A DNA stretch of 32,222 nucleotides from Elusimicrobiales bacterium (GCA_049972095.1 JBMFKQ010000017.1:1-32222), one strand, 5' to 3'. Shown: positions 9,316-31,868, numbered from the stretch's first letter. Notes: a model not told the origin generated them from the sequence alone. Program-made: numbers and translations.

Positions 9316-9930
9316 ATGAAAATAATTCCATTTGAGGTTGGAAGTATGAATAATCTTGTCTACATCGTCGATTTTGGAGATTTTTTTGTTGTTATTGACA
9401 CATCATTTGGTTATGAGAAGATAAAAGAGTATGCAGGATCAAAAAAAGCGCTTGCCTTTCTTTTTACTCACGGACACTATGACCATGTCATGGATGCAAA
9501 AAGGATATATTTAGATTTTAATGATGCTGTGTTTTATATGAACATAAAAGATGAGTTTCTTCTTCCTTTCAATGATCTTAATATAATCGATGTTTCTCAA
9601 AAGGATACCCTTGAATTAGCTGGAAATAAGATTTCTGTGATACATACACCTGGGCACACCCCTGGAAGTGTATGCTATCTTATTGAAAATCATCTTTTTA
9701 CAGGTGATACACTTTTTTGTAATTCGTGTGGGAGGGTTGATCTTCCAGGCTCTGACCCCAAACAGATGAGAATATCTCTTCTTAAAATTCTTGAGCTTCC
9801 AGACAATACCCTAATCCATCCTGGACATAACTATGGCGGAATAGAAATGACACTTGAAAAAGCTAAGAAAGAGAATCAGTTTCTTTCATCCGCAGATGAT
9901 GAAGAACTTTTTCTTTCACTTATCTTATGA
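9316..9930 (+). CDS. MBL-fold metallo-hydrolase (glyoxalase II-like)
   Basis: THGHYDH, HTPGHTPGS, FTGDTLF, GRVDLPG and PGH motifs. Confidence 0.92.
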   Translation: MKIIPFEVGSMNNLVYIVDFGDFFVVIDTSFGYEKIKEYAGSKKALAFLFTHGHYDHVMDAKRIYLDFNDAVFYMNIKDEFLLPFNDLNIIDVSQKDTLELAGNKISVIHTPGHTPGSVCYLIENHLFTGDTLFCNSCGRVDLPGSDPKQMRISLLKILELPDNTLIHPGHNYGGIEMTLEKAKKENQFLSSADDEELFLSLIL

Positions 9931-10553
9931 AAATAGCTGTTGTAAGCGATTTTGATGGCACTGTTAGCGAAACGGACATTGGAGATATGCTTCTGCTTGA
10001 GTTTGGTAAGGCAACTATTGAGGAGATAGAGCAGTCTTATAGACAAGGTGTTAATCTTGAGCAATGGATGAAGGTCTATTTTTCAAAGATGAAAGATATA
10101 AGCTTAACTGAGATAGAAAGAGTTATAAATGAGAAGGTTAGGGCAAGGGATGGTTTTGTTGAAACTTTGCGTTTTTTTTCAGATAATAACATTCCATTTG
10201 AGATAGTCAGCGGTGGGTTAGATCTTTATATTGATGCATTTATGAGAAAATATGGAGTGAGTTTTTCAGGGTTTTATGGAAGATTCAATCATGGTGATAT
10301 CACTTATGACTTTTTAAACGGTATGAGCCTTTATGAGTTTAAGGCGTCAAGGGTTATTAATTATAGAAATCTTGGTTATACTGTAGTCTTTCTTGGAGAC
10401 TCTTACAATGATTATCAGGCCGCGGTTGCAGCTGATATTAGATTTGCTACACTTAGACTTGCAAAGATTCTTTCAGATGAAAAAAGAGAATTTATATCGT
10501 ATTCAACATTTTATGAGGTTAAAAGTATTATAAATGAAGCCTTATCTTTTTGA
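9927..10553 (+). CDS. HAD-IB family phosphatase (MtnX-like)
   Basis: DFDGT motif I, IVSGG motif II, K and GDSYND motif IV. Confidence 0.85.
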   Translation: MKIAVVSDFDGTVSETDIGDMLLLEFGKATIEEIEQSYRQGVNLEQWMKVYFSKMKDISLTEIERVINEKVRARDGFVETLRFFSDNNIPFEIVSGGLDLYIDAFMRKYGVSFSGFYGRFNHGDITYDFLNGMSLYEFKASRVINYRNLGYTVVFLGDSYNDYQAAVAADIRFATLRLAKILSDEKREFISYSTFYEVKSIINEALSF

Positions 10554-11310
10554 GATATTCGGATTTAAAGTCCCATCATATGGAGTTATGATAGCGGTTG
10601 CATATATTGTTGCATATATTTATCTTTCAAAAAAATCCAAGGTTTATGCTATTGATGAAAAAAGGCTTAGTGATATAATCTTCTATTCAGTTATCTTTGG
10701 TTTTTTGGGAGCAAAGATTAGTTATATAATAACATTCTGGAATTATTTTGGTTCTGGTTTTAAAGAAAGGTTTTTGAATATCTTTTCAATTGATAATCTT
10801 AGATCAGGATTTATTTTTTATGGTGGAGTTATAACAGGTTTTCTTGGTTTTTTTTGGAGTGTTAAAAAGAATAAACTTGATGTAGTGTCTATGGCAGATC
10901 TTTTTGCCCCTGCAATGGCTCTTGCTCATTCTATAGGCAGAATAGGATGTTTTCTTGCAGGATGTTGTCATGGGAAAGAGACTGATTTTTTTCTTGGTGT
11001 TGTATTTACATCTCCATACTGTGAGGTTTCTAAAGATCTTATAGGCAAAAAAATACATCCAACCCAACTTTATGAATCAGTTGGAAATTTTATTATATTT
11101 CTTTTTCTCAATTATGCACTTTTTAAGCTTCCAAAAGGAAGGGTTTTCCTATCCTATATATTTCTCTATTCCCTTCTGAGGTTTATTGTTGAGTTTGTGA
11201 GGGGAGATGAAAGAGGAGCATACATTTTTGGACTTTCTCAGGCACAGGTTATATCAGTTATCCTAATTGTTTTGGCATCTTTATTATGGAAGCGGATTTC
11301 AAAGAAATAA
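10534..11310 (+). CDS. lgt: Prolipoprotein diacylglyceryl transferase
   Basis: SYGVM, FYGG, GRIGCFLAGCCHG, HPTQLYES and RFIVEFVRGD motifs; multi-TM. Confidence 0.95.
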   Translation: MKPYLFEIFGFKVPSYGVMIAVAYIVAYIYLSKKSKVYAIDEKRLSDIIFYSVIFGFLGAKISYIITFWNYFGSGFKERFLNIFSIDNLRSGFIFYGGVITGFLGFFWSVKKNKLDVVSMADLFAPAMALAHSIGRIGCFLAGCCHGKETDFFLGVVFTSPYCEVSKDLIGKKIHPTQLYESVGNFIIFLFLNYALFKLPKGRVFLSYIFLYSLLRFIVEFVRGDERGAYIFGLSQAQVISVILIVLASLLWKRISKK

Positions 11311-12200
11311 AAAAGATATACAGCGGCAGTGGTGAGAGGGTTGATATATATCTCAAATCAGTTCTTAATGGCTTTTCAAGGCAGCTTATAAAAGCTATGA
11401 TAGAGAAAGGCTATGTGAAGATAAATAGAGATGTGGTAAAACCATCATATATACTTAAATCTGGTGATGAGATAACTATAGTCTTAAACAGAGAGAATAA
11501 GAAAGATTTTAATCTCAAAGACATAATTATCTATGAAGACGATGATATAATTGTTTTAAATAAACCGGCAGGTTTAATAGTCCATCCACCGGGTGAAAGT
11601 TGGTTGACTAACCCAGATGCGCTTATGTTTTCACAACAGAGCCTTGCATTGCTTCTCTATTCTCAAAGTTCTATATCAAAATCTGATGTAAGGCGTATGG
11701 GGCTTGTTCATAGGCTTGATGCTGAGACAAGTGGGGTTATGGTTGTTGCAAAGAAATTTTCTATTCAGAGGTTTTTGATGGAGCAGTTTTCATCAAGAAG
11801 TGTTGATAAAAACTACAAAGCTGTTGTTTGTGGTGTTGTGTCTGATGATAAGATTATAATAGATGCACCTATTGGAAGGTTTTCTGGTGATAAGAGACTT
11901 AGGGTTATGGAATATGGGCGGGATGCTGTGACGGAGATCTCTGTAATAGAAAGAGGGAGTAAAAATAGCTATCTTGATGTTTTTCCAAAAACAGGTAGAA
12001 CAAATCAGATAAGGATTCATCTTTCATATATAGGTCATCCTATTGTTGGTGATGAAGTTTATGGAGGGAAGGAATATAAAAGATTAATGCTTCATTCATA
12101 TTCAATTGCCTTTATTCATCCTTCCTCCAAAAAATATGTTAGATTCAAGGCAGAGCCTGACAGAGATTTTGAAAACTTCATCTCTGAACTTCTTGCATAA
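11286..12200 (+). CDS. RluA-family pseudouridine synthase with N-terminal S4 domain (RluD-like)
   Basis: ERVDIYL..SRQ S4 domain, NKPAGLIVHP, catalytic HRLDAETSG, TGRTNQIRIH and GHPIVGD. Confidence 0.93.
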   Translation: MEADFKEIKKIYSGSGERVDIYLKSVLNGFSRQLIKAMIEKGYVKINRDVVKPSYILKSGDEITIVLNRENKKDFNLKDIIIYEDDDIIVLNKPAGLIVHPPGESWLTNPDALMFSQQSLALLLYSQSSISKSDVRRMGLVHRLDAETSGVMVVAKKFSIQRFLMEQFSSRSVDKNYKAVVCGVVSDDKIIIDAPIGRFSGDKRLRVMEYGRDAVTEISVIERGSKNSYLDVFPKTGRTNQIRIHLSYIGHPIVGDEVYGGKEYKRLMLHSYSIAFIHPSSKKYVRFKAEPDRDFENFISELLA

Positions 12201-20258: not shown

Positions 20259-22340
20259 ATGAAGGATCTTGTTATTGTTGAATCACCAACCAAGCAAAAG
20301 ACCATATCAAAGTTTCTTGGAAATAATTTTGTTGTCAAAAGCTCATACGGTCATATAAGGGATCTTCCTGAAGATGATTTTGGTGTGGATATAGAGAATG
20401 GTTTTAAACCTCATTATATACTTATAGATAGGGCGAAGAAGGTAATAGCTGAGCTTATGAAATTTGCATCATCAAGCCGGAATATCTATCTTGCCACTGA
20501 TCCTGATAGGGAGGGTGAGGCTATAAGTTGGCATATAACTGAGGCTCTTAAAAATATAGATAGGAAGAAGTTTAGGAGAATCACATTTCATGAAATAACA
20601 AAAGAAGCAATAATAGAGGCTTTGAAAAATCCAAGAGATATAGACATAAATCTTGTTAATGCCCAGCAGGCAAGAAGGATACTTGATAGAATAGTTGGTT
20701 ATAAGATATCTCCCCTTTTGTGGAAGAAAATAAAGGGTGGTCTTTCAGCAGGGAGGGTTCAGTCTGTAGCTGTAAGGCTTGTTTACGAGAGGGATAAGGA
20801 GATATCTACTTTTGAGGTCAGAGATTACTTTACAATAAATGGTTTATTTGCTTATTCTGATTCTAAAATACAAGCAAGGATGATTAAATGGAATGGACAG
20901 AATGTTGAAAGATACACAGTTTTAAAACTTTTTGCAGAGGATTATAAGTATAGAAGCTCAATTTTTGAAAAAAAAGAGGATGCGTTTTTAGCGATAAATC
21001 TGATAAGGGATAAAAAATTTAATGTTATAAAGAAAGAATCAAAGACAGTTGTTTCAAAGCCTAAGCCTCCTTTTATAACAAGCACTCTTCAGCAAGAGGC
21101 ATATACGCGCCTTGGTTTTACATCTGACAGAACCATGAAGATAGCTCAAAAGCTCTATGAAGGTGTTTCTATAAAGGGTGAGATGAGGGGATTGATAACA
21201 TATATGAGAACAGATTCTTTTAATGTTAGCAAAAATATACAACTTCAGGCTCAAAAATTTATAAAAGAAAATTATGGTGATGACTATTGCCCTCAAACTC
21301 CACCTGTATATATAAAAAAGGTTAAAGGAGCACAAGAGGCTCATGAGGCAATACATCCAACAGATGTGTTTCTTACGCCAGAAAGCGTAAAAGGGTATCT
21401 TTCTGATGATGAGTTTAAGCTTTATGATCTTATATGGAAAAAATTTATGGCAAGTCAGATGGAGAATGCAGTTTTTGAGCAATTAACTATTGAGATCTCT
21501 GATGAGGATAATAGATCAGTTTTCAAAGCAGGTGGAAGAAGTCTTAAATTTGATGGCTATCTTAAAGTTTATGGTGATGATGAAGAAGACAAGGATAATG
21601 AGGAAAATGCAGTTCTTCCCCCTATTTCGCAAGGTGATATGCTTTTGCCTGTTGATTTTGATGTTAAATCTCATACCACAACCCCACCACCATCATATAA
21701 TGAGGCAAGTCTTATAAAAACCCTTGAGATTCATGGAATAGGAAGGCCTTCAACATACGCAACGATAATATCAAACATAATTCACAGAGGTTATATAAAA
21801 AGGGATAAGAGTAAGAAGCTTATAATAACAGAACTTGGTAGGAAAGTGACTGAAAAACTCATAGAATTTTTTCCTGATATAATGAGCCTTAACTACACTG
21901 CAGATATTGAGGATAAGCTTGATGACATAGCTAGTGGTAGTCTTTTATGGACAGAGCTGCTTTTATCCTTCTACAACAAGTTTAAGATAGAGCTTGATAA
22001 GGCAAATAAGGAGATGTCAAAAGAAGGGGCTCAGATATACTATGCAGAGAAATGTCCTGTTTGTGGGGCTGATATGATACTCAGAGAAAGCCGATTTGGA
22101 AAGTTTCTCACATGCTCTAAATTTCCAAGATGTAAGGGTAAGATAGGTCTCTCTGATAATATGGAAAAAAAGTTTATCGGTGTTAAAACCACTGAAAGGT
22201 GTAGTGTTTGTAAAACTGGATATATGGTTTTAAGAAAAGGTTCTAAGGGATATTTTCTTGGATGTTCTAACTTTCCAAAATGTAAGAATGTTAAGAAGAT
22301 AAGTGATGAGGAGGTTTCAAGGATACTTTCTAACAAATAG
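20259..22340 (+). CDS. topA: DNA topoisomerase I (type IA)
   Basis: LVIVESPTK, ATDPDREGEAI, SAGRVQS, catalytic ITYMRTDS, QEAHEAI and GIGRPSTY; two C-terminal C4 Zn ribbons. Confidence 0.98.
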   Translation: MKDLVIVESPTKQKTISKFLGNNFVVKSSYGHIRDLPEDDFGVDIENGFKPHYILIDRAKKVIAELMKFASSSRNIYLATDPDREGEAISWHITEALKNIDRKKFRRITFHEITKEAIIEALKNPRDIDINLVNAQQARRILDRIVGYKISPLLWKKIKGGLSAGRVQSVAVRLVYERDKEISTFEVRDYFTINGLFAYSDSKIQARMIKWNGQNVERYTVLKLFAEDYKYRSSIFEKKEDAFLAINLIRDKKFNVIKKESKTVVSKPKPPFITSTLQQEAYTRLGFTSDRTMKIAQKLYEGVSIKGEMRGLITYMRTDSFNVSKNIQLQAQKFIKENYGDDYCPQTPPVYIKKVKGAQEAHEAIHPTDVFLTPESVKGYLSDDEFKLYDLIWKKFMASQMENAVFEQLTIEISDEDNRSVFKAGGRSLKFDGYLKVYGDDEEDKDNEENAVLPPISQGDMLLPVDFDVKSHTTTPPPSYNEASLIKTLEIHGIGRPSTYATIISNIIHRGYIKRDKSKKLIITELGRKVTEKLIEFFPDIMSLNYTADIEDKLDDIASGSLLWTELLLSFYNKFKIELDKANKEMSKEGAQIYYAEKCPVCGADMILRESRFGKFLTCSKFPRCKGKIGLSDNMEKKFIGVKTTERCSVCKTGYMVLRKGSKGYFLGCSNFPKCKNVKKISDEEVSRILSNK

Positions 22341-22352
22341 CATAGAACAGTA

Positions 22353-23267
22353 ATGAGAAACCTATTAGACAAATTTATCCTCCACATAAAAACAAGACTT
22401 GGTTTTTCAAAAAACACTGAGCGTGCTTATAGAAGGGATATAGGTGATTTTATTTCCTTTCTTGAAGCTCTGAAAATAGCAAGCCCGTTAGATATAGATA
22501 ACATTATTCTAAGAAGATATCTATCAGAGCTTAGTAGTAAAGGTCTTTCAAGAAACTCTCTTATAAGAAAGGTTTCATCTGTAAGAAGTTTCATGTCATT
22601 TCTTACACTTGAAGGTCTTATAAAATCAAATCCCTTTGATGTGCTTCTTCTACCTAAAAAGGAAAAAAAACTTCCTTCATTTTTAACATATGAGGAGCTG
22701 GATAAACTTTTGAAATACAACTCACCTGATTATGTTCTTTCAAGAGAGCCCAATTACCCTTTTGCTTTTAGGGATTATGCACTTGTTATGCTTCTTTATT
22801 CCTCAGGCTTAAGGAGAAGCGAGGTTGTGGGACTTAATGTCGGTGATGTGGATCTGATAGGGGGATATGTGAGGGTTTATGGAAAGGGAAGGAAGGAAAG
22901 GATAGTTCCTGTTGGAAATAATGCATTAAAGGCGATTGAGAACTATCTTAATACACTTCCTATTGATAAGAAAACATACTCTTCGCCCCTTTTTACAAAT
23001 AAATATGGTGGTAGGTTAAGTGATACATCTGTTTTTCTGATAATAAAAAAAATGGCTTTAAGAGCAAGATTTACAAGGCATCTCAAACCTCATATCCTGC
23101 GTCATACCTTTGCTACACATCTGATAAACAATGGATGTGATATAAGGGCTGTAAGTGAGATGCTTGGACATTCATCATTATCAACAACTCAGGTTTATAC
23201 TCATCTAACCATTGAAAGGCTTAAAGAGGTTCACAGAAAGTTTCACCCAAGAAATTCAATGAAGTGA
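22353..23267 (+). CDS. xerC: Tyrosine recombinase XerC-like
   Basis: SAM-like N-terminus; complete catalytic set GLRRSE, GKGRKER, HILRHTFATH, LGH and TQVY; dprA-topA-xerC synteny. Confidence 0.88.
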   Translation: MRNLLDKFILHIKTRLGFSKNTERAYRRDIGDFISFLEALKIASPLDIDNIILRRYLSELSSKGLSRNSLIRKVSSVRSFMSFLTLEGLIKSNPFDVLLLPKKEKKLPSFLTYEELDKLLKYNSPDYVLSREPNYPFAFRDYALVMLLYSSGLRRSEVVGLNVGDVDLIGGYVRVYGKGRKERIVPVGNNALKAIENYLNTLPIDKKTYSSPLFTNKYGGRLSDTSVFLIIKKMALRARFTRHLKPHILRHTFATHLINNGCDIRAVSEMLGHSSLSTTQVYTHLTIERLKEVHRKFHPRNSMK

Positions 23268-23268
23268 T

Positions 23269-24606
23269 ATGAAATTTATAATTCTAATTTCATCCTTTCT
23301 TTTATCATCTGATGATTGCAGCTATTTTGACTCTAAGTTTAAGCAGGAGTTTGCTTATTCTTTTTCTGTTTATGATCTTAAAGAATCAAAAATAGTTAAA
23401 AGCTGTAAGAAGGATATGCTGCTTATACCTGCAAGCAGTCTTAAGGTTGTAACATCACTTTATGCTTTTGAAAATCTTGGTAGTGATTACAGATTTAAGA
23501 CCGAGATAGCTTTAAGTAAAAATACTAAAAATCATAGGCTTGTTATAAAAGGTTGTGGAGATTTTACACTTGGAAGTGAAAATTTTTCATCCTCCATAGA
23601 TAGTGTTACTCTTAGGATTTATGAGGTTATCAAAGAAAGAAATATAAAGAAACTTGAAGGTGTTTATGTTGTTAACGGTTATATCAGCTTTCCTGATGGG
23701 AGTGTTGAGTGGCAGGATCTTGGAAACTATTATGCAACCACAGTTAGCCTTTTTAGCATAAATGATAATTCATATAAGATTCACTTTAGAACCTTTGATG
23801 CAGAAAAGCCTGCTGTGATAACTAAAATAGTCCCTCACCCCGGACTTCATTTTATCAACATGGTTGTTGCTGGCTCTTCTTTTAGTGGGGATAATGCATA
23901 TATTAAGGCAAACCCTTATTCACCAAATGCCGTGATAATAGGGAATCTTCCTGCTATGAAGGATGATTTTGTGATAAAAGGTGCGGTTTTCCATCCAGAT
24001 AGTTTTTTTGCTGATTTTATATGTAAATACTTTAAGGAGGTTGGTGTGGAGGTAGGTGGCTGTTATTCAGTGGATAGATATGATGATGATTATGAGGTAG
24101 TTGATACAATCTACTCACCACCTCTTTCAAAGATAGTTTCATTTATGAATGAGAAAAGTTTTAATCTTTATGCTGAATCGCTTCTGCACTTTGCAATGAT
24201 CAAAAGTGGTGTTATAGGTTATGAAAGAAATATTGAAGAATTGTCTTCTTTTCTTAAAAAAATAGGGGTTGAAAAATTTTATATAAGAGATGGCAGTGGT
24301 CTTTCAAGAAGAAACCTTTTTACCGCAGATGGTTTTGTTAAGATTCTTGATTATGCTTATCACTCTAACTATTTTGAGAGCTTTTATCTTTCTCTTCCAT
24401 CATCAGAAAGGTTTAAGATTAATGGTGCTGATGAGCTAAGATTTAAAAGTGGTTCAATGAATAGAATAAGGAGTTGGTGTGGTTATATAAGAAGAGATCA
24501 GAAAATCTATGCTTTTTCATTCATATTTAACAATTATCTTTCACAACCATCTGAGATTGAATCAGCAGTTGTAGAATATCTTGAAGAAATTATTCAAGGT
24601 GTTTAG
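23269..24606 (+). CDS. dacB: D-alanyl-D-alanine carboxypeptidase/endopeptidase (peptidase S13, PBP4)
   Basis: PASSLK (SxxK), SFNLYAE (SxN), DGSGLSRRN and KSG (KTG variant). Confidence 0.9.
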   Translation: MKFIILISSFLLSSDDCSYFDSKFKQEFAYSFSVYDLKESKIVKSCKKDMLLIPASSLKVVTSLYAFENLGSDYRFKTEIALSKNTKNHRLVIKGCGDFTLGSENFSSSIDSVTLRIYEVIKERNIKKLEGVYVVNGYISFPDGSVEWQDLGNYYATTVSLFSINDNSYKIHFRTFDAEKPAVITKIVPHPGLHFINMVVAGSSFSGDNAYIKANPYSPNAVIIGNLPAMKDDFVIKGAVFHPDSFFADFICKYFKEVGVEVGGCYSVDRYDDDYEVVDTIYSPPLSKIVSFMNEKSFNLYAESLLHFAMIKSGVIGYERNIEELSSFLKKIGVEKFYIRDGSGLSRRNLFTADGFVKILDYAYHSNYFESFYLSLPSSERFKINGADELRFKSGSMNRIRSWCGYIRRDQKIYAFSFIFNNYLSQPSEIESAVVEYLEEIIQGV

Positions 24607-24654
24607 GTTAAGTAGCTCAAGTTTTGTAAAATATGATTTTGAAGGAGTTGATTT

Positions 24655-25848
24655 ATGGCAATAAAGTATCTCACACATATGGTTAAAATTGAGGGTAAAG
24701 GTGATCTTTTGATAAGACCCGCAAGGCTTATGGACGCAAGAAGGATTCAGGTGCTATATACCGAGGTTTACGGCTCATCCTATTCAATATCAATAATAAC
24801 AAATCCGGATAAGATGAAAAAAGCAATAGAGAGCGATGAATACTACTGGCTTGTTGCTGACTACAACGGGAAAATTGTTGGTAGCCTTGTTTATTCTCTT
24901 GATTATAAGCAGAGAATTTCAAAGGCATTTGGTGCAGTGGTAAGTGATGAGTTTAGAAAACATAATATAGCATACACAATGATGAAGCTCATACTTGATG
25001 ATATAACCCAGAAGCAGAGGCTTGTTGATGTTGTTTATGCAACCACACGAACAACCTCTCAGGCACCACAAAGGCTTACAGAAAGTCTTGGTTTTCTCAA
25101 ACTTGGAATATTTCCAAACACACATAAAGTTGCGGAGAATGAAACTCACTGCTTTACTGCATATCTTACTGAAGATGCCTTGAAAAAAAGAAAGAAGTTT
25201 CCTGAGATAGTGCCAGAGATCGCTCCGTTTTATGACATAGTCCTTAAACAGATAAAGCTTGAGTCTGCAAAGATATCTAATATTAAAGGCAAATACTCTG
25301 GTCACAAAATAAAGATACCGATCATTGACTTTGAGGTTATAACAGCATCTCAATTTATAAAAAGAAGATATTCAAGAGTAAAAAACAAAGGGATTTTCCT
25401 GCATACATTTATGCCATTTCATGAACCAAATATTCTTCTTGTTAGTTCTAATGGAAAGACAGAGGTTTATATGACATACAATCCAAAGGATAGATATAGT
25501 GTTTTTGTTGGTGGTTTTTCAGATCTTGAGCCAGAGATACTCCTTGAAAGTGTTGCAAAGAAGATGCAGGAGCTTGATATGACTTATCTTGAAATCCTCT
25601 TTGACGCTTATACACCAAGACTCCAAAGAGCCGCCATTGATGCAAGATTCATCCCATCAGGATATTTCCCAGCTGCAAAGATATCTAACAATTTAAGATA
25701 TGATTGCGTGATATTTTCAAGAACCTTTGATATACTTGATTTCAGAAATGTTAAGCTTTCAGGGCTTTATAAAAATTTTCTTAAAGAGTATTTGAAGCTC
25801 TGGAGAGAAAATTATATAGAGGTGGTTTTTGAAAGTGAAAGAGCTTGA
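24655..25848 (+). CDS. GNAT-family N-acyltransferase-like protein, probably two tandem GNAT-like domains
   Basis: IRPARLMD..I..LY.EVYG, WLVADYNGKIVG, AVVSDEFRKHNIA (motif A) and SLGF..LG; second degenerate domain ending FIPSGYFP; AAGGAG SD. Confidence 0.75.
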   Translation: MAIKYLTHMVKIEGKGDLLIRPARLMDARRIQVLYTEVYGSSYSISIITNPDKMKKAIESDEYYWLVADYNGKIVGSLVYSLDYKQRISKAFGAVVSDEFRKHNIAYTMMKLILDDITQKQRLVDVVYATTRTTSQAPQRLTESLGFLKLGIFPNTHKVAENETHCFTAYLTEDALKKRKKFPEIVPEIAPFYDIVLKQIKLESAKISNIKGKYSGHKIKIPIIDFEVITASQFIKRRYSRVKNKGIFLHTFMPFHEPNILLVSSNGKTEVYMTYNPKDRYSVFVGGFSDLEPEILLESVAKKMQELDMTYLEILFDAYTPRLQRAAIDARFIPSGYFPAAKISNNLRYDCVIFSRTFDILDFRNVKLSGLYKNFLKEYLKLWRENYIEVVFESERA

Positions 25849-27010
25849 TATTGAAAAAAAACTTCCTCATCCTTCTCATAAACTTAAGGAGAAAACAGTT
25901 CTTGAAAGGCTTGTTGAAAAAAGCCCTTTTGATTACTCTTTGTCTACATTGAATACTCTTGTTGAGGCAATGAGATACACTGCATCTTTTCAGTATGAAA
26001 GATCAGCTTTTATAAAAAGATACTATGATTCTGTTAATTTTAAACCGTCATCAGTAAAAAGGATATCGGATCTTAAAGATATACCTTATGTTTATGTTAA
26101 CGCCTTTAAGGAAAGAAATCTTACAACCTTAAAAAAGAATAAGATAGTGCTTGAGCTAAAATCAAGCGGAACAACCGGGCAGAGCTCAAAAATACAGCTT
26201 GATATTGGTTCGCTGCTTAGAGTAAGAAGAATGGCATGGAATGTGTTTGAGGCTCTTGGGTTATGTGATATGTCAAGGAGATATGATTATATATGTTTTA
26301 CCTATGATCCTGAGTTTGCAGGTGATGTTGGAACAGCCTGGACTGATAAGCTTATTACATCATTTACCCAAAAAGGCGAGATATTTTATTGCTTTAAATG
26401 GAGTAGCGAAAAGAAGGATTTTTATTTTGATATTGATGGTGCTATTATGAAGCTCAGGGAATATGAAGAAAAAAAGACTTGTGTTAGAATGCTTGGTTTT
26501 CCTGCTTTTGTTCTTAAACTAACGGAAAGATATAAAGAGAGATTTTCAAGATATCCAATTCTTAATCCAGATTCGTATGTTATAACTGGCGGTGGATGGA
26601 AAACCCTTGAGAATGAGGCAATGGACAAGAAGATATTCAGACAGATTCTTGCAGATAATCTTTCTATTCCGGTTGAAAACATAAGGGATTTGTTTGGTAT
26701 GGTTGAACATGGGGTTGCTTATGTTGACTGCAAACTTGGAAATTTTCACATACCTGTTTATGGAAGAGTTTTTGCAAGAGATCCTTATACGATGAAGATT
26801 CTTCCTTATTCAAAGAAAGGTCTTTTAGAATTTATGACACCATATCTTACCTCCTATCCATCATTTGTTCTTCTTTCCGGTGACTGGGGAAGTATAGAGG
26901 AAGGCTGTGATTGTGGTCTCAAAGGACCTGTTCTAAGAATATATGGCAGAGCAGGGATAAGAAAACACAAAGGATGTGCTATAGCAGCCTCTGATAAATT
27001 CAAAGCATAA
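25829..27010 (+). CDS. LuxE-like acyl-protein synthetase
   Basis: DIPYVYVNAFK, SSGTTGQSS P-loop, TGGGWK, IRDLFGMVEH, FHIPVY and C-terminal GRAG..KHKGC (Cys383). Start may be the GTG at 25835. Confidence 0.88.
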   Translation: MKVKELDIEKKLPHPSHKLKEKTVLERLVEKSPFDYSLSTLNTLVEAMRYTASFQYERSAFIKRYYDSVNFKPSSVKRISDLKDIPYVYVNAFKERNLTTLKKNKIVLELKSSGTTGQSSKIQLDIGSLLRVRRMAWNVFEALGLCDMSRRYDYICFTYDPEFAGDVGTAWTDKLITSFTQKGEIFYCFKWSSEKKDFYFDIDGAIMKLREYEEKKTCVRMLGFPAFVLKLTERYKERFSRYPILNPDSYVITGGGWKTLENEAMDKKIFRQILADNLSIPVENIRDLFGMVEHGVAYVDCKLGNFHIPVYGRVFARDPYTMKILPYSKKGLLEFMTPYLTSYPSFVLLSGDWGSIEEGCDCGLKGPVLRIYGRAGIRKHKGCAIAASDKFKA

Positions 27011-27022
27011 ATTGGAGGGTGA

Positions 27023-29641
27023 ATGAGTTTTTCTCAGATATATGTTTTTGGTAAGAGATTTGATATGATTGATAAATTTGTGCTTAAGTATATTGAGGAA
27101 AAAATCCCTTCAGCAAAGCAGAATATTTATTCAAAGAAAGTCTCTGACATAATTGATGTGCTGGATAGGGTTGGAAGGGTTTTTGCCGATAAAAAATCTA
27201 TGCCATATAAAGTTGCCATTGAGGATCTCAGTAAGAATATAAAGTTCTCACTGCCTATGATAGAGCAAACCCTTGATCTTGTGCCACAAATACTTTCTAA
27301 GAAAAGCCTTGAAAAGAGGCTTTTGCTTGAGCTTGGATATCCATCATCACTTGATGGTATGGTGGAAAGGGATTCTTATAGAGGAATGCTAACTGCATAT
27401 CCAAAGGGGGTTGTGTTTCATGTTGGGGCTGGCAATGTTTTTATAGGGATACTTGACTCTCTTATTATGGGTTTAATAACAAAGAATGTAAATATAGTTA
27501 AGATTTCATCAAAAGGCTCAAACTTTATGAATATATTTTGTGATTTGCTTGATGATATAGACAGAAAGGATATAATTTCTAAAAGCTTTGCTATACTTAA
27601 ATGGAAAGGTGGTGAGAAAGAGATTGAGGAGAAAATAGTATCACTATCAGATCTTGTGCTTGTTTGGGGAGGATATGAGGTAGCTGATTATTACAGAAAA
27701 ACTGTTCCTTTTACTACTGACATTGAGATATTTGGGCCAAAGACAAGCTTTGGCATAGTAACAATGAACTACATATCAAGATACGGCTATTCTCACACTG
27801 CTAAGCAGATTGTTAAAGACTGTTCGATGTGGGACCAGGCTGCATGTTCAAATATGCATGACCTTTATATAATCTGTGATGAAAAAGATAGGGAGGTAGC
27901 TGTTAAAAATCTGATGAAAGAGATTAAAAAAAGCTTTATTGAGTTTGAAAAAAAACTTCCCTGTGGTAAGATAGATGAGGATGAGATGGTTGAGATAATA
28001 AAGGCAAGAGAGCTTGCCAGGGTTGATAAGGCAATGGGTTTGGCTGATGTTATGATTGGTAATAAATTTACTGTTATCTATGAAAAAGATCCATCATATC
28101 GTCTTTCACCACTCAATAGAACCCTTTATATAAAAACTGTCTCGAAGATTGATGAGCTTAAAAAACAGCTTCTTCCTTATAGACACTATCTTCAAAGCTG
28201 TGGTCTTGGGGCTGAACCATTCGAGATGAAAGAGATAATCAAGAAGTTTCACAGCACAGGGGTTCATAGATTCTGCGAGCTTGGAAAGATGAGTGAGGGT
28301 GAGGATGGATCACCTCATGATGGCAGGTTTGTGCTTTCAAGGCTTGTGAGATGGGTTGGTTTTGAGTGGAGTGAGTCGCTTGAAGATCGTATTATTGGCC
28401 TTGTCAATTTTGCAAAAACGAGCACTGATTTTTATAGTAGGTTTTATCGTAGGATAGAGGTGAAAAAACTATCTGATTTTAAAAAACTACCATTTCTTAC
28501 AAAGGAGCATCTTTTTGAAAATACACCACCATTAAATCTCTCAATCTTTAGCTCAAAGCCATCCAATGGAATATACTTTGCAAGCGGTGGTTCAACAGGA
28601 AAACCAAAGTATGTTTTTTATGATAGCCATGAATATTCAGAGATCTCCAAAATGCTTGCAGATGCTTATATAAAGGCTGGAATTGAAAAGGGAGATATTG
28701 TTGCAAACCTTTTTGTCAGTGGAAATCTTTGGTCAAGTTTTTTAAGTGTTGAAAGAGCTTTATCTTTAACTGATGCTGTAAGCCTTCCTATTGGTTCATC
28801 ACTTCCTCTTGAAAACATAACAGAATATCTTAAAGAGTTTAGTGTTAATGCTCTAATAGGGCTCCCATCTTTTCTTTTGAAACTGGCATCATATATTAAG
28901 GAGAAGAAGCTCAAGCTAAGGATAAACAAGATATTCTACGGTGGTGAGTACATAACTGATGAGATGATATCTTATTTTAAAGATGTTTTTGGCAAAGGCT
29001 GTTTAGTCAGATCAGCAGGATATGCGAGTGCTGATGCAGGTGTAATAGGGTACCAGTGCAGTCATCTTGAAAAAGGTTTTCATCATCTTTTTAAAGAGCA
29101 TCAATATCTTGAGATAATAAATCCGGATACACTTAAACCCGTAAAAGATGATGAGATAGGAGAGGTCGTAATAACACCCCTTTTTAAAAAAAGAATGCCT
29201 TTGATAAGATACAGAATTGGGGATCTTGCAAGATGGGTTAATGTAAAGTGTGGATGTGCAAGTGATGATCCTGTTTTTGAGATAGTTGGAAGATGTGATG
29301 ACAGAATTCATGCAGGTGGCGCTCATATATTTGTGTGGGATATTCAAAAAGCAATATCCCTTGTTAAAGGACTTAGCTTTAATTTTCAGATTATTGTTGA
29401 TAAGAAAGGTGTGAGAGATTTTATTGAGATTGTTGTTGAATCGAAAGATTTTACAAATTCAAAGGCTCTTTCTGAAAAGCTTATTGAAAAGATAATGGAA
29501 AACTGCCAGGATCTTGCCGAAAGTGTTAAGATGGGTTGGATAGATGTTCCTTCAGTGAAAATAGTTCCTTTTGATACAATTGAAAGGATTAGCCGCACAG
29601 GAAAGATAAAGAGGGTTGTTGATAGAAGGATAAAAGTTTGA
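27023..29641 (+). CDS. Fusion: LuxC-type acyl-CoA reductase (aa 1 to about 450) plus PaaK-like adenylate-forming ligase (C-terminal about 420 aa)
   Basis: N-part has PKGVVFHVGAGNV, VWGG, FGPKTSF, DQAACS (Cys275), LQSCG and PHDGRFVLSRLVRW. C-part has LPFLTK, ASGGSTGKPK, YASADAG, MPLIRYRIGD, GRCDD and RTGKIKRVVDRR. GGAGG SD. Confidence 0.9.
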   Translation: MSFSQIYVFGKRFDMIDKFVLKYIEEKIPSAKQNIYSKKVSDIIDVLDRVGRVFADKKSMPYKVAIEDLSKNIKFSLPMIEQTLDLVPQILSKKSLEKRLLLELGYPSSLDGMVERDSYRGMLTAYPKGVVFHVGAGNVFIGILDSLIMGLITKNVNIVKISSKGSNFMNIFCDLLDDIDRKDIISKSFAILKWKGGEKEIEEKIVSLSDLVLVWGGYEVADYYRKTVPFTTDIEIFGPKTSFGIVTMNYISRYGYSHTAKQIVKDCSMWDQAACSNMHDLYIICDEKDREVAVKNLMKEIKKSFIEFEKKLPCGKIDEDEMVEIIKARELARVDKAMGLADVMIGNKFTVIYEKDPSYRLSPLNRTLYIKTVSKIDELKKQLLPYRHYLQSCGLGAEPFEMKEIIKKFHSTGVHRFCELGKMSEGEDGSPHDGRFVLSRLVRWVGFEWSESLEDRIIGLVNFAKTSTDFYSRFYRRIEVKKLSDFKKLPFLTKEHLFENTPPLNLSIFSSKPSNGIYFASGGSTGKPKYVFYDSHEYSEISKMLADAYIKAGIEKGDIVANLFVSGNLWSSFLSVERALSLTDAVSLPIGSSLPLENITEYLKEFSVNALIGLPSFLLKLASYIKEKKLKLRINKIFYGGEYITDEMISYFKDVFGKGCLVRSAGYASADAGVIGYQCSHLEKGFHHLFKEHQYLEIINPDTLKPVKDDEIGEVVITPLFKKRMPLIRYRIGDLARWVNVKCGCASDDPVFEIVGRCDDRIHAGGAHIFVWDIQKAISLVKGLSFNFQIIVDKKGVRDFIEIVVESKDFTNSKALSEKLIEKIMENCQDLAESVKMGWIDVPSVKIVPFDTIERISRTGKIKRVVDRRIKV

Positions 29642-29642
29642 T

Positions 29643-30344
29643 TTACTGATTTCTTGTATCCCTGTCAGATAGAACTGATTCAAGGAAATTTTTTGCGATA
29701 TCCTTTGCACCAAGCCCAAAGGATATACCAACAGCAAGAGCAAAACCAAGTCCAAGAGAGGCAAAAAGTATATTTATGCTTGACCTTAGTAATTTTATAT
29801 CAAGTCCAAGCTGTTCTATAACTATTATGCTTGTGAAAACGAGGACTACTGTTGATATGATCTTTGAAAACATCTTTCCTGCTCTAAGATTATTTGCTAT
29901 GGCAGCGTTATAGACAATATCCTCTATAACCTTTGATATTACTATTCCAACAAAGCCTATTATTATTGCTGCAACTACCCGTGGTATGAATTTGATAAGG
30001 AATGTCTCAAGAATATTTGATATGAAGTTCAGCTTAAGTGCAGATGTTGCTGATGCTATGAATATTAGCATTACTATCCAGTATATTATTATCCTTAGTA
30101 TTTTTGATGGTGATTTGCCCATTCCTATTCTAAAGAGTATCTCGTTTATGCCAAATTTTGCTGTAACTGTATCAAGCCTTATCCTTTTCATTATATACTC
30201 AAAGAATGAGCTTATGACCCTTGCAAGGAAAAAACCAATGACTATGAATATAAATGCCGAAATCATATTAGGTATGTAGTCAAGAATAACACTCCATATC
30301 TTATATGTTGCATCCCCCAAAAGAGAAACAACCTCCCTTCCCAT
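29643..30344 (-). CDS. Conserved-TM-helix (MscS-associated / CmpX-like) membrane protein
   Basis: Two repeats (YIPNMISAFIFIVIGFFLARVI; FIPRVVAAIIIGFVG) and ALAVGISFGLGAKD; AAGGAG SD; no cytoplasmic MscS beta domain. Confidence 0.8.
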   Translation of the reverse strand: MGREVVSLLGDATYKIWSVILDYIPNMISAFIFIVIGFFLARVISSFFEYIMKRIRLDTVTAKFGINEILFRIGMGKSPSKILRIIIYWIVMLIFIASATSALKLNFISNILETFLIKFIPRVVAAIIIGFVGIVISKVIEDIVYNAAIANNLRAGKMFSKIISTVVLVFTSIIVIEQLGLDIKLLRSSINILFASLGLGFALAVGISFGLGAKDIAKNFLESVLSDRDTRNQ

Positions 30345-30383: not shown

Positions 30384-30405
30384 TTTATCAAATTATCTTG
30401 ATAAA
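30384..30405. promoter_or_regulatory. Perfect 8-6-8 inverted repeat in divergent promoter region (candidate operator)
   Basis: TTTATCAA-attatc-TTGATAAA, immediately upstream of TATAAT at 30409-30414. Confidence 0.4.
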
Positions 30406-30421
30406 TTATATAATTTTTTTT

Positions 30422-31534
30422 ATGACTTTGAGGAATATTCTTTCAACCATAGGTTTTATATATGGTTATGAACCCAGTGGTCATTCGAGTGTTGCAAAGG
30501 CTGTTTGTGAGTTTCTACCTTCAGAGGTTGTTGCTTTTAGGTTTTTAAACCTTTCAGACATATTTTCTGATACTGCACGAGTGATTGTTAAAGGCTATCT
30601 TGAAATAATACAAAAAGCTCCTGGGCTATGGGGATATCTTTATGATAGCCCACTTCTTAGTTTTCTTCACAGAAATCTGGGTATAACCCCACCGCCCTCA
30701 TACACTGAAAAGATTGAAAGGGTTATAGTTAAAAATGGTATTGATTTTCTTGTTTCAACTCATGCATTTTCATCTATCATCGCAAACAGAAATAGTATGA
30801 GGATAAAACTAAAAAAGCACATAGGGATAATAACGGATATATATGCTCATTCTTTCTGGCCAAATGATCTTGATAGATATTTTGTTCCACATTATGAAAC
30901 TTATAAATCTCTTGCACTTAATGGTGTAGCACAGCATAAGATTGAGATTTCAGGTATGCCGCTAAGAAAAGAATTTTACATAAATTACAACCAGAGCAAA
31001 ATCAGGAAAAAACTCAAACTAAAAAATCGCTACACCTTTCTTATAAGCGGGGGAAGTAAGGGGCTTGGGGATATAATATCGGTCATAGAGGCTATAAGGA
31101 GCATAAAAAGAAAGGTTAATATAATAGTGCTTTGTGGTTTAAACAAGCATCTTATGAGGGAGATAAGGAGTATGAGATACATTGATGATTTGAAGATAAT
31201 GGCTGTTGGTTATCATCTTAACACTGCAATGTTTTATGCAGCAAGTGATTGTGTTATAGGAAAAGCCGGTGGAGTTACTCTTTTTGAAACAGCAGCAATG
31301 TCAAAACCTTTTATAGTGTGGAATGCCATACCCGGGCAGGAGGAAAGAAACAGAGATTTTTTAAAGAAACACTCATATGCCCTTTGCCCTTTGAATAAGA
31401 GTGAGTTGAGAGAGGCGATCTGGACTTTTTATTCTAACCATGATTTGGCATTGAGATATTCTCATTCAATATCAAACCTTCATAAAAAAGATGCTCCTGT
31501 TAGAATTGTGGATTATATCCTAAGCAATGTTTGA
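30422..31534 (+). CDS. MGDG-synthase/UgtP-like glycosyltransferase (GT28)
   Basis: SGHSSVAKA, VSTHAF, IITDI..H.FW, SGMPLRKEF, GGSKGLG, GKAGGVTLFE and IPGQEERN. Start placed at the ATG at 30422, 7 nt after TATAAT. Confidence 0.88.
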   Translation: MTLRNILSTIGFIYGYEPSGHSSVAKAVCEFLPSEVVAFRFLNLSDIFSDTARVIVKGYLEIIQKAPGLWGYLYDSPLLSFLHRNLGITPPPSYTEKIERVIVKNGIDFLVSTHAFSSIIANRNSMRIKLKKHIGIITDIYAHSFWPNDLDRYFVPHYETYKSLALNGVAQHKIEISGMPLRKEFYINYNQSKIRKKLKLKNRYTFLISGGSKGLGDIISVIEAIRSIKRKVNIIVLCGLNKHLMREIRSMRYIDDLKIMAVGYHLNTAMFYAASDCVIGKAGGVTLFETAAMSKPFIVWNAIPGQEERNRDFLKKHSYALCPLNKSELREAIWTFYSNHDLALRYSHSISNLHKKDAPVRIVDYILSNV

Positions 31535-31571
31535 GGTTTTAAAAATTGTAAAATATTTTTACATCAATTTT

Positions 31572-31643
31572 CGGGGAGTGGCTCAGTGGTAGAGCGCTCG
31601 CTTGGGGTGCGAGAGGCCCAGGGTTCGATTCCCTGCTCCCCGA
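31572..31643 (+). tRNA. tRNA-Pro (GGG), CCA not encoded
   Basis: Acceptor CGGGGAG/CTCCCCG, D arm GCTCAGTGGTAGAGC, anticodon arm CTCGC-TTGGGGT-GCGAG, T arm CAGGG-TTCGATT-CCCTG. Confidence 0.96.
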
Positions 31644-31698
31644 TATTGTTGATAAGTTGGTGTTTTTGTTGGATGGAGTTTATCATCCCCTGATTTTT

Positions 31699-31776
31699 CG
31701 GGGCGTGGCTCAGATGGCTTAGAGCGTCCGGTTCGGGACCGGAAGGTCGCCGGTTCAAATCCGGCCGCCCCGACCA
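31699..31776 (+). tRNA. tRNA-Pro (CGG), CCA encoded
   Basis: Acceptor CGGGGCG/CGCCCCG followed by ACCA, anticodon arm TCCGG-TTCGGGA-CCGGA, T arm GCCGG-TTCAAAT-CCGGC. Confidence 0.96.
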
Positions 31777-31833
31777 AGTAAGACTTTCATTATTTCTAGA
31801 AGAAAATGTTTGCTTGCTCGCCTCGCCTTCGGC

Positions 31834-31868
31834 TCGGCTCACTTCTCGCTTGCGAGCCGATGATTTTT
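31834..31868 (+). terminator. Possible intrinsic terminator after the tRNA pair
   Basis: TCGGCTC (31834-31840) pairs with GAGCCGA (31854-31860), followed by TGATTTTT. Confidence 0.35.

Follow-up and report, generated by a model that had tools for sequence, protein, structure and literature searches.

Leupeptin-type aldehydes are classic protease inhibitors, and the primary study of the operon behind leupeptin is said to be that of Li et al. (2020, Angew Chem). The genes named in descriptions of this operon in the Klebsiella oxytoca/michiganensis complex, Photorhabdus and Xenorhabdus are those for an MFS transporter, an "acyl-CoA reductase" and a GNAT protein, together with one protein of the LuxE/PaaK family and one ligase of the PaaK family (PMC8283571, PMC11480411, PMC11212599, bioRxiv 10.64898/2026.08.25.747093). 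It is presented as leupABCD plus a transporter in the account that also gives PCR primers, with an amplicon of 1,235 bp (PMC8283571). The pathway is reported to dispense with nonribosomal peptide synthetases (NRPS), as separate AMP-dependent ligases form the amide bonds and a reductase forms the aldehyde (PMC11212599), and the reported products are leupeptin (Ac-Leu-Leu-argininal), a Lys analogue and derived pyrazinones (PMC11480411). Here we compare with this operon a cassette of three genes, coding for a tandem-GNAT protein, a LuxE-like protein and a LuxC::PaaK-like fusion, found in contig 17 of an Elusimicrobiota genome (1.44 Mb, 58 contigs, 96.5% complete). The whole stretch of DNA analyzed, 32,222 nucleotides long, is referred to as the window. 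Judging from its protein sequences, the cassette is probably a reduced, deep-branching variant of the leupeptin-type (leup) pathway, a carrier-free, non-NRPS route to N-acyl peptide aldehydes.

Kinship with the leupeptin operon

The genes of the cassette, and the two domains of the fusion protein, are the following.

24655-25848, + strand: tandem-GNAT gene, 397 amino acids (aa), ATG start
25829-27010, + strand: LuxE-like gene, 393 aa, TTG start, with a 20-nt overlap with the GNAT gene
27023-29641, + strand: LuxC::PaaK-like fusion gene, 872 aa, after a 12-nt gap downstream of the LuxE-like gene
27134-28354, + strand: LuxC-like thioester reductase domain of the fusion, aa 38-444 (Pfam LuxC, 6.9e-72), with C275 in DQAAC
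28382-29638, + strand: PaaK-like adenylate-forming domain of the fusion, aa 454-872, with SGGSTGKPK at aa 521-529 and a C-terminal TGK861IKRVVDRR

A sequence-only reading of this DNA had described three tightly coupled genes coding for a GNAT protein, a LuxE and a LuxC fused to an adenylate ligase, and both the open reading frames and their domain assignments are confirmed here, the latter by Pfam and NCBIfam searches. The GNAT protein matches Acetyltransf_1 (aa 57-147, 1e-7), and the LuxE-like protein matches Pfam LuxE (aa 29-391, 3.2e-42) as well as the LuxE of Photobacterium phosphoreum (PDB 7xc6_E, 3.7e-25). In the fusion, Pfam AMP-binding (aa 521-717, 2.8e-7) and AMP-binding_C_2 (aa 766-869, 1.2e-9) were also identified, and the PDB matches are LuxC 7xc6_A (3.1e-27) and PaaK 4r1l (4.8e-34). 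NCBIfam recognized its C-terminal half as PaaK-like at 2e-43 and 1.8e-40, both far under the model cutoffs, and the PaaK equivalogs were missed (TIGR02155, 138.7 against a cutoff of 646.3; NF041878, 148.6 against 700). On these scores, the C-terminal domain is PaaK-like in fold only.

A copy of the characterized operon was recovered from a metagenome contig collection scanned with the published primer leupA_f, which gave eight exact matches. At one of these loci, L119, primer leupB_r is also exact and the leupA_f-leupB_r span is 1,235 bp, the published amplicon size. The genes of L119 code, in order, for an MFS protein (419 aa), a LuxE-like protein (378 aa), a LuxC::AMP-binding protein (801 aa), a PaaK-like ligase (446 aa) and a GNAT protein (305 aa). 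As Pfam places LuxC (aa 43-413) and AMP-binding (aa 416-663) in the same 801-aa protein, the LuxC::PaaK fusion is also present in the characterized leup operon.

The proteins of the window align with those of L119. The two fusions match over both domains (27% identity in 798 columns, query aa 95-869, 6e-66), and the two LuxE-like proteins show 32% identity over 349 aa (5e-61), with the Cys tail aligned. The PaaK-like domain of the window also matches the free ligase of L119 (29% identity, 6e-42). In the case of the GNAT proteins the match involves the N-terminal domain only, both by BLASTP (24% identity over 137 aa, 6e-7) and by hhalign (96.6% probability, 132 columns, 5e-10). The leupeptin operon has this enzyme set, including the fusion in L119, which contradicts the sequence-only reading where it held that the architecture has no settled function. 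Its general idea of an aldehyde-bearing specialized metabolite made from more than one activated acid agrees with a leupeptin-type assignment. It had also named an already characterized cluster of the same architecture as grounds for giving up its proposal, and the leupeptin operon is such a cluster in substance, with the free ligase, the MFS gene and the full-length GNAT match as differences. The observation was sound, and its interpretation is partly supported.

Several points weigh against a leupeptin-type assignment. Identities between the window and leup proteins are low (24-32%), and the GNAT proteins differ in length, with 397 aa and a second domain in the window against 305 aa in L119, the last 170 aa of which gave no significant match to the window GNAT family profile (probability 0.5%). 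The acyl-CoA loop of GNAT proteins (R/Q-x-x-G-x-G/A) is noncanonical here, reading R101-K-H-N104-I-A, with Gly at position 104 in just 23 of 80 family members, so acyl-CoA use by this protein is an assumption. A free LeupC-type ligase was not found, the fusion being the sole PaaK-like match in the genome, although at 96.5% completeness a contig may be missing. The cassette has no adjoining MFS gene, being flanked by dacB and an MscS-like gene, and the six MFS_1 matches of the genome are on four other contigs. A maximum-likelihood tree of 33 PaaK-like domains contains five starred clades (LeupC-type free ligases, Bdellovibrionota-type free ligases, LeupB-type fused, Bdellovibrionota-type fused and three-gene-cassette fused), and the window domain sits in the last of these (support 99/98), separate from the LeupB-type fused clade. 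As the deep forks between clades are weak (78/36, 84/71), the cassette is placed as a putative third deep-branching type, with a relation to LeupB and LeupC that the tree does not settle. The literature search turned up no role assignment for the individual Leup enzymes, and the roles proposed for them below are our own, drawn by analogy; it also found no product reported for any member outside Gammaproteobacteria. Overall, the locus is homologous to the leupeptin pathway but differs in the free ligase, the adjacent MFS gene and the full-length GNAT match, and because these three features are absent or only partly present we classify it as a variant and not as a member.

Catalytic residues and candidate mechanism

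A model for the reductive part of the pathway is provided by P. phosphoreum, for which the relay from the LuxE Cys to the LuxC Cys and on to the aldehyde is described as established. The same account gives Lys238 and Arg355 as the adenylation pair of LuxE, a C-terminal motif TRxxKGCxLS whose Cys364 forms a flexible acyl-carrying tail, and Cys296 as the acyl-accepting catalytic Cys of LuxC (PMC9157457). The landmarks of the window LuxE-like protein are an SSGTTGQ loop (aa 112-118), K258, R374 and a C-terminal KGC383. Its tail, RKHKGCAIA, aligns on REQKGCSLS of 7xc6_E, so that C383 (codon 26975-26977) is the Cys of the KGC motif. Conservation was assessed in cross-phylum alignments of 18 LuxE-like proteins and 17 fusions from Elusimicrobiota, Bdellovibrionota, Actinomycetota, Algicola, Obscuribacterales and Smithellaceae. 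S112, S113, G114, K258, R374 and C383 are invariant in 18/18 LuxE-like sequences, while in the fusions C275 (27845-27847), within DQxAC, and G522, G523, G526, K529, G860 and K861 are invariant in 17/17. Both thioester cysteines are thus intact, as the earlier reading had proposed, and since the catalytic residues are invariant in the two alignments, all of the cassette enzymes look active.

Both adenylating units also contain an invariant Cys-His-Cys-Cys set, made up of C301 (26729-26731), H307 (26747-26749), C360 (26906-26908) and C362 (26912-26914) in the LuxE-like protein and of C679 (29057-29059), H688 (29084-29086), C743 (29249-29251) and C745 (29255-29257) in the fusion. The C..H and CxC elements occupy equivalent places in the two units. 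They are also seen in the aligned PaaK 4r1l, and the aligned P. phosphoreum LuxE has residues other than Cys at these places. The arrangement suggests a structural metal site.

The GNAT protein has an N-terminal GNAT domain (approximately aa 16-175) and a second alpha/beta domain (approximately aa 225-360). An AlphaFold2 model built on an 80-sequence alignment (mean pLDDT, 95.7; pTM, 0.93) contains two alpha/beta domains, of which the first has the standard GNAT fold (VIA-align, Z 12-13, rmsd 2.0-2.9). The whole chain aligned with the tandem GNATs 7q3a_B (Z 12.2, 258 residues, rmsd 5.0), 3ddd_A (Z 12.4, 235 residues) and 9emd_A (Z 12.4, 251 residues), with a high rmsd (4.6-7.3) across these alignments. 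On these alignments, the second domain may be GNAT-like. Foldseek against the PDB returned single-domain GNAT matches only, and the clusters found in the ESM Atlas were all generic GNAT ones, chiefly of Elusimicrobiota, Actinomycetota, Bdellovibrionota and Chloroflexota. P154, E313 and D350 are invariant in 80/80 sequences, the latter two within the second domain, and length in the family is about 380-400 aa throughout. In an exhaustive search, 380 cluster representatives were recovered at E <= 0.001, and 202 with the stricter threshold of E <= 1e-10. An MFS domain is fused to the N terminus of the GNAT in 3 of the 6 longer family representatives scanned, and an MFS gene adjoins the GNAT gene in loci L070, L072 and L097.

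In some loci there are paralogous pairs of tandem-GNAT genes, side by side or nearby (L060:2591-4926; L052:6751-8570; L053:7004-8095 and 10591-11724; L083:7001-7981 and 9483-10592). One paralog of each pair is nearer to the window protein (33-38% identity), and the other belongs to a subfamily without the R-x-x-G-x-A loop. A search with the GNAT protein of Algicola showed no enterobacterial name among the 120 of 133 matches listed, and a cluster look-up of 10 of its matches gave generic names and one Eremiobacterota label. At the order level around the Algicola genome, 13/401 genomes gave a match, and in all 12 matches from genomes other than that of Algicola the coverage is confined to the N-terminal GNAT domain.

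For the window locus, a mechanism can be proposed in which the relay residues are conserved and the remainder follows from the parts list. The N-terminal GNAT domain would begin by placing a short acyl group, as a cap, on the alpha-amine of one amino acid. The PaaK-like domain, the simplest choice of adenylating enzyme for this step, would then activate the carboxylate of the capped amino acid and couple it to the amine of a second one. The LuxE-like enzyme would adenylate the C-terminal carboxylate and hold it, bound as a thioester, on Cys383 of its own flexible C-terminal tail, from which the acyl group would pass to Cys275 of the LuxC-like domain and be reduced with NAD(P)H to the aldehyde. 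The assignment of ligases to steps is left unfixed, and iterative use of a ligase or another division of labor is possible. In L119, there are three adenylating domains for a capped tripeptide aldehyde, in which two peptide bonds have to be formed and one carboxylate reduced. As there are two adenylating domains here, one would most simply expect the product to be shorter than leupeptin by one residue. This would be an N-acyl dipeptide aldehyde or, should one of the ligases act otherwise, an N-acyl amino aldehyde. With three genes and two adenylating domains, this would be a compact system in which to learn how the number of residues is set, and cassettes of this kind could be a source of new small aldehydes.

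Distribution and genomic setting

The fusion gene is present in 43 of the 46 genomes of the window's own family. In a phylum sample of 401 genomes, source genome included, matches spanning both halves of the fusion were found in 65 genomes among those listed, the headline figure of 115/401 including genomes that match the PaaK half only. Protein-search relatives bearing names are all Elusimicrobiota. Of 20 Elusimicrobiota loci fetched with wide flanks, 17 have their genes in the order GNAT-LuxE-fusion, and the remaining three (L050-L052) are of a rearranged, paralogous type. Among the cassette proteins, conservation is highest in the GNAT, with 77-78% identity between the window and its closest fetched relatives (L033 and L034), compared to 58% for the fusion. 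The cassette genes have a GC content of 0.353-0.358 and a third-position GC content (GC3) of 0.26-0.31, matching the neighboring topA, xerC and dacB (GC, 0.326-0.350; GC3, 0.23-0.28). The proposal of a long residence in this lineage, made from the sequence alone, was right, and the locus shows the three-gene core to be a stable trait that an uncultured Elusimicrobiota family has maintained by vertical descent.

The range of the cassette is much wider. A cross-phylum scan of one genome per species, with a 14-sequence alignment of the GNAT subfamily, gave 48 loci, in 36 of which GNAT, LuxE, LuxC and PaaK occur together. The hosts of these 36 are Bdellovibrionota, Elusimicrobiota, Kitasatospora, Streptomyces, Allokutzneria, Solihabitans, Algicola, Obscuribacterales and Smithellaceae, and the other 12 loci are mostly contig-end cuts or GNAT alone. 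In many of the 48, a single free PaaK-like ligase and an MFS gene are present in addition. Two annotated actinomycete plasmids code for a PaaK-family ligase, an MFS protein, a GNAT, an acyl-protein synthase and a 2.5-kb "acyl-CoA reductase." The carrier-free non-NRPS route is known experimentally from a few Gammaproteobacteria only. Related cassettes are present in Bdellovibrionota, Actinomycetota, Melainabacteria-like and other lineages.

The setting of the cassette within the window is the following.

within 20259-24606: topA, xerC and a PBP4-type dacB, upstream of the cassette
24625-24632, + strand: extended -10-like box TGTAAAAT in the 48-nt spacer after dacB, read directly; weak evidence
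24641-24647, + strand: Shine-Dalgarno-like GAAGGAG, 7 nt upstream of the GNAT ATG, read directly
27014-27018: GGAGG in the gap upstream of the fusion gene, read directly
29643-30344, - strand: convergent MscS-like channel gene, 233 aa, with 1 base between its end and that of the fusion gene
30398-31534: GT28/MGDG-synthase-like glycosyltransferase (Pfam/NCBIfam), downstream of the cassette

The convergent gene that was said to close the operon is therefore there. Regarding the claim that the cassette has its own Shine-Dalgarno sequence and -10-like box after dacB, both can be read directly from the DNA, but a consensus scan of the region found promoters at chance level (26 against 24.1 +/- 4.9 expected) and lists no full promoter at the site of TGTAAAAT. 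Terminators were also at chance level (4 found against 3.2 +/- 1.7 expected). Given these scans, the promoter-like and Shine-Dalgarno-like signals are there but are no proof of anything.

The neighborhood is variable. Among the 20 fetched loci the upstream context topA-xerC-dacB recurs in L033 only, and the downstream MscS-like and GT28/MGDG-synthase-like genes recur only in L033 and L034. A survey of 13 Elusimicrobiota loci identified no conserved functional partner. In 6 of these 13, a giant NHL-repeat/TPR protein is coded upstream of the cassette, where the window has dacB (L035:416-3862, L036:11355-14804, L037:13883-16567, L039:14133-16568, L041:216-2855 and L045:76-2901), accompanied by small proteins with no Pfam match, among them a divergently oriented one of 240-310 aa; these were the only neighbors to recur. 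In one relative a tocopherol-cyclase-family gene lies directly 3' of the fusion gene (L041:9619-10881). Further downstream in the window there are tandem tRNA-Pro genes (31571-31644 and 31699-31776, anticodons GGG and CGG), and a minus-strand open reading frame of 92 aa (31564-31842) is a read-through of this pair. The stretch 24300-29900 was found in two DNA runs labeled hot springs metagenome, from two studies, sharing 0.89 and 0.60 of the sampled words, and one of these may be the source sample; no RNA run was listed for this stretch.

The presence in 43/46 family genomes, the 1.44-Mb genome, the housekeeping-gene setting and the lack of an exporter and of a third ligase would fit a second possibility, namely, that in this Elusimicrobiota family the product is an intracellular or signaling metabolite rather than an exported protease inhibitor. 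For example, an N-acyl amino or dipeptide aldehyde might control proteases of the cell itself, or might cyclize to a pyrazinone-type signal, and the conserved second GNAT domain, with invariant E313 and D350, would take the acyl group from the LuxE thioester and not from acyl-CoA. We regard this version as rather doubtful, and a reduced leupeptin-type pathway to a peptide aldehyde is the reading that we prefer.

Other explanations and comparison with described systems

Proteins with LuxC and LuxE domains immediately bring to mind bioluminescence. However, the genome (all 58 contigs) has no matches to the luciferase family Bac_luciferase (PF00296) or to LuxD (PF02273), LuxG not having been searched for, which agrees with the earlier statement that luxA, luxB and luxD are missing from the window. 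There is one LuxC locus and one LuxE locus in the whole genome, and both proteins score far under the equivalog cutoffs (fusion against LuxC NF052251, 123.3 bits with a cutoff of 750; LuxE-like protein against LuxE NF052244, 116 with a cutoff of 550). The cassette is not an orphan light-organ system. Several public homologs are annotated as "acyl-CoA reductase," and the 2.5-kb homolog on the two actinomycete plasmids has the GO term "bioluminescence." A leupeptin-type assignment would correct the database annotation of these homologs.

A lux-type fatty acid reductase working without luciferase, to provide a fatty aldehyde for a lipid, wax or ether lipid whose head group comes from the action of the GNAT and the second ligase, seems improbable. 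It would account for the strong Pfam LuxE and LuxC matches and the conserved Cys relay residues, and LuxC relatives are described as reducing fatty acyl thioesters elsewhere, e.g., TabE (bioRxiv 10.1101/2025.08.11.669332). Nevertheless, besides the low equivalog scores and the absence of a LuxD-type acyl-transferase in the PF02273 search, both proteins align end to end with leup-operon proteins, the fusion over both of its domains, and what is conserved alongside them in different phyla is GNAT, PaaK-like ligases and MFS rather than lipid genes. The neighboring GT28/MGDG-synthase-like glycosyltransferase would speak in its favor, but among the fetched loci it is kept in L033 and L034 only. The unusual lipid precursor suggested by the sequence-only reading is not favored for the same reasons of score and partners.

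Somewhat less probable still is that the GNAT is a Pat/AcuA-type protein lysine acetyltransferase that silences both adenylate-forming enzymes through their catalytic lysine. The best PDB sequence match of the family profile is indeed a protein acetyltransferase (3f8k, 7.1e-9), the structural matches include the Streptomyces lividans PAT GNAT domain with the acetyl-CoA synthetase C-domain (4u5y, Z 12.6) and Escherichia coli PatZ (9it0, Z 11.6), and the PaaK-like domain retains the lysine K861. These Z scores, however, are tied with those of dozens of small-molecule GNATs in the same list, and the GNAT is fused or adjacent to MFS in several lineages, which fits a small-molecule substrate. The characterized operon, moreover, holds a GNAT and its product is described as N-acetylated, and GNAT is the protein best conserved in L033 and L034. 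Finally, a glycan or nonulosonic acid acylation module like the luxC/luxE sets of Aeromonas and Enterobacteriaceae flagellin glycosylation islands is highly improbable. Nonluminous luxC/luxE homologs do occur there with an AMP-dependent synthetase (PMC7874193, PMC4875605), but the two accounts present their function as untested and the islands carry acyl carrier protein, FabG and pse genes, none of which flank the window cassette (dacB, MscS-like, GT28-like) or are among the neighbors scanned in the 13 related loci.

Returning to the leupeptin-type reading, the nearest systems can be compared one by one. The extended cassettes of Bdellovibrionota, Actinomycetota, Algicola and Obscuribacterales contain tandem-GNAT, LuxE-like and LuxC::PaaK genes together, like the window, but they also have a single free PaaK-like ligase and, in most cases, an MFS gene, both of which the window lacks. 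Bdellovibrionota-type cassettes have, in addition, a conserved protein of ~480-520 aa with no Pfam match, absent from the window. It is coded between the free ligase and LuxE in three loci (L072:1770-3236, L081:1809-3245 and L053:436-2004), and in L070 (4302-5771) it lies upstream of the MFS gene and GNAT.

The leup operon and the window cassette have in common a LuxE-like synthetase with a C-terminal Cys tail, a LuxC::PaaK-like fused reductase-ligase, a GNAT with a homologous N-terminal domain and a tight operon with no carrier protein and no NRPS. The former has three adenylating domains and an adjacent MFS gene, whereas the latter has two, with no free LeupC-type ligase in the window or genome, no adjacent MFS gene, a gene order that begins with GNAT, a GNAT with a conserved second domain where the C terminus of the L119 protein is unmatched, and a PaaK-like domain in a separate starred clade. 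Its host is an uncultured member of the Elusimicrobiota, and the product is a predicted one.

With LuxCDE (P. phosphoreum LuxC-LuxE, 7xc6), the likeness lies in the two folds and the residues of the Cys-to-Cys thioester relay, with the KGC tail aligned and with K258/R374 as invariant counterparts of LuxE Lys238/Arg355. The window genome differs in being without LuxA, LuxB and LuxD, in the fusion of the reductase to a second adenylating domain, in the GNAT partner, in the Cys-His-Cys-Cys set that the aligned P. phosphoreum LuxE does not have and in scores far under the equivalog cutoffs.

Last, the NRPS-made peptide aldehydes of Streptomyces (antipain, chymostatin and livipeptin, among others), as described in PMC10548850 and PMC11212599, are of the same predicted product class, small peptide aldehyde protease inhibitors, but their machinery is unrelated, with NRPS modules and terminal reductase domains in place of stand-alone ligases and a LuxC-type reductase. 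Seen against these systems, the kind of pathway is the one already described for leupeptin, and what is noteworthy is its distribution in uncultured phyla and its occurrence in a reduced genome.

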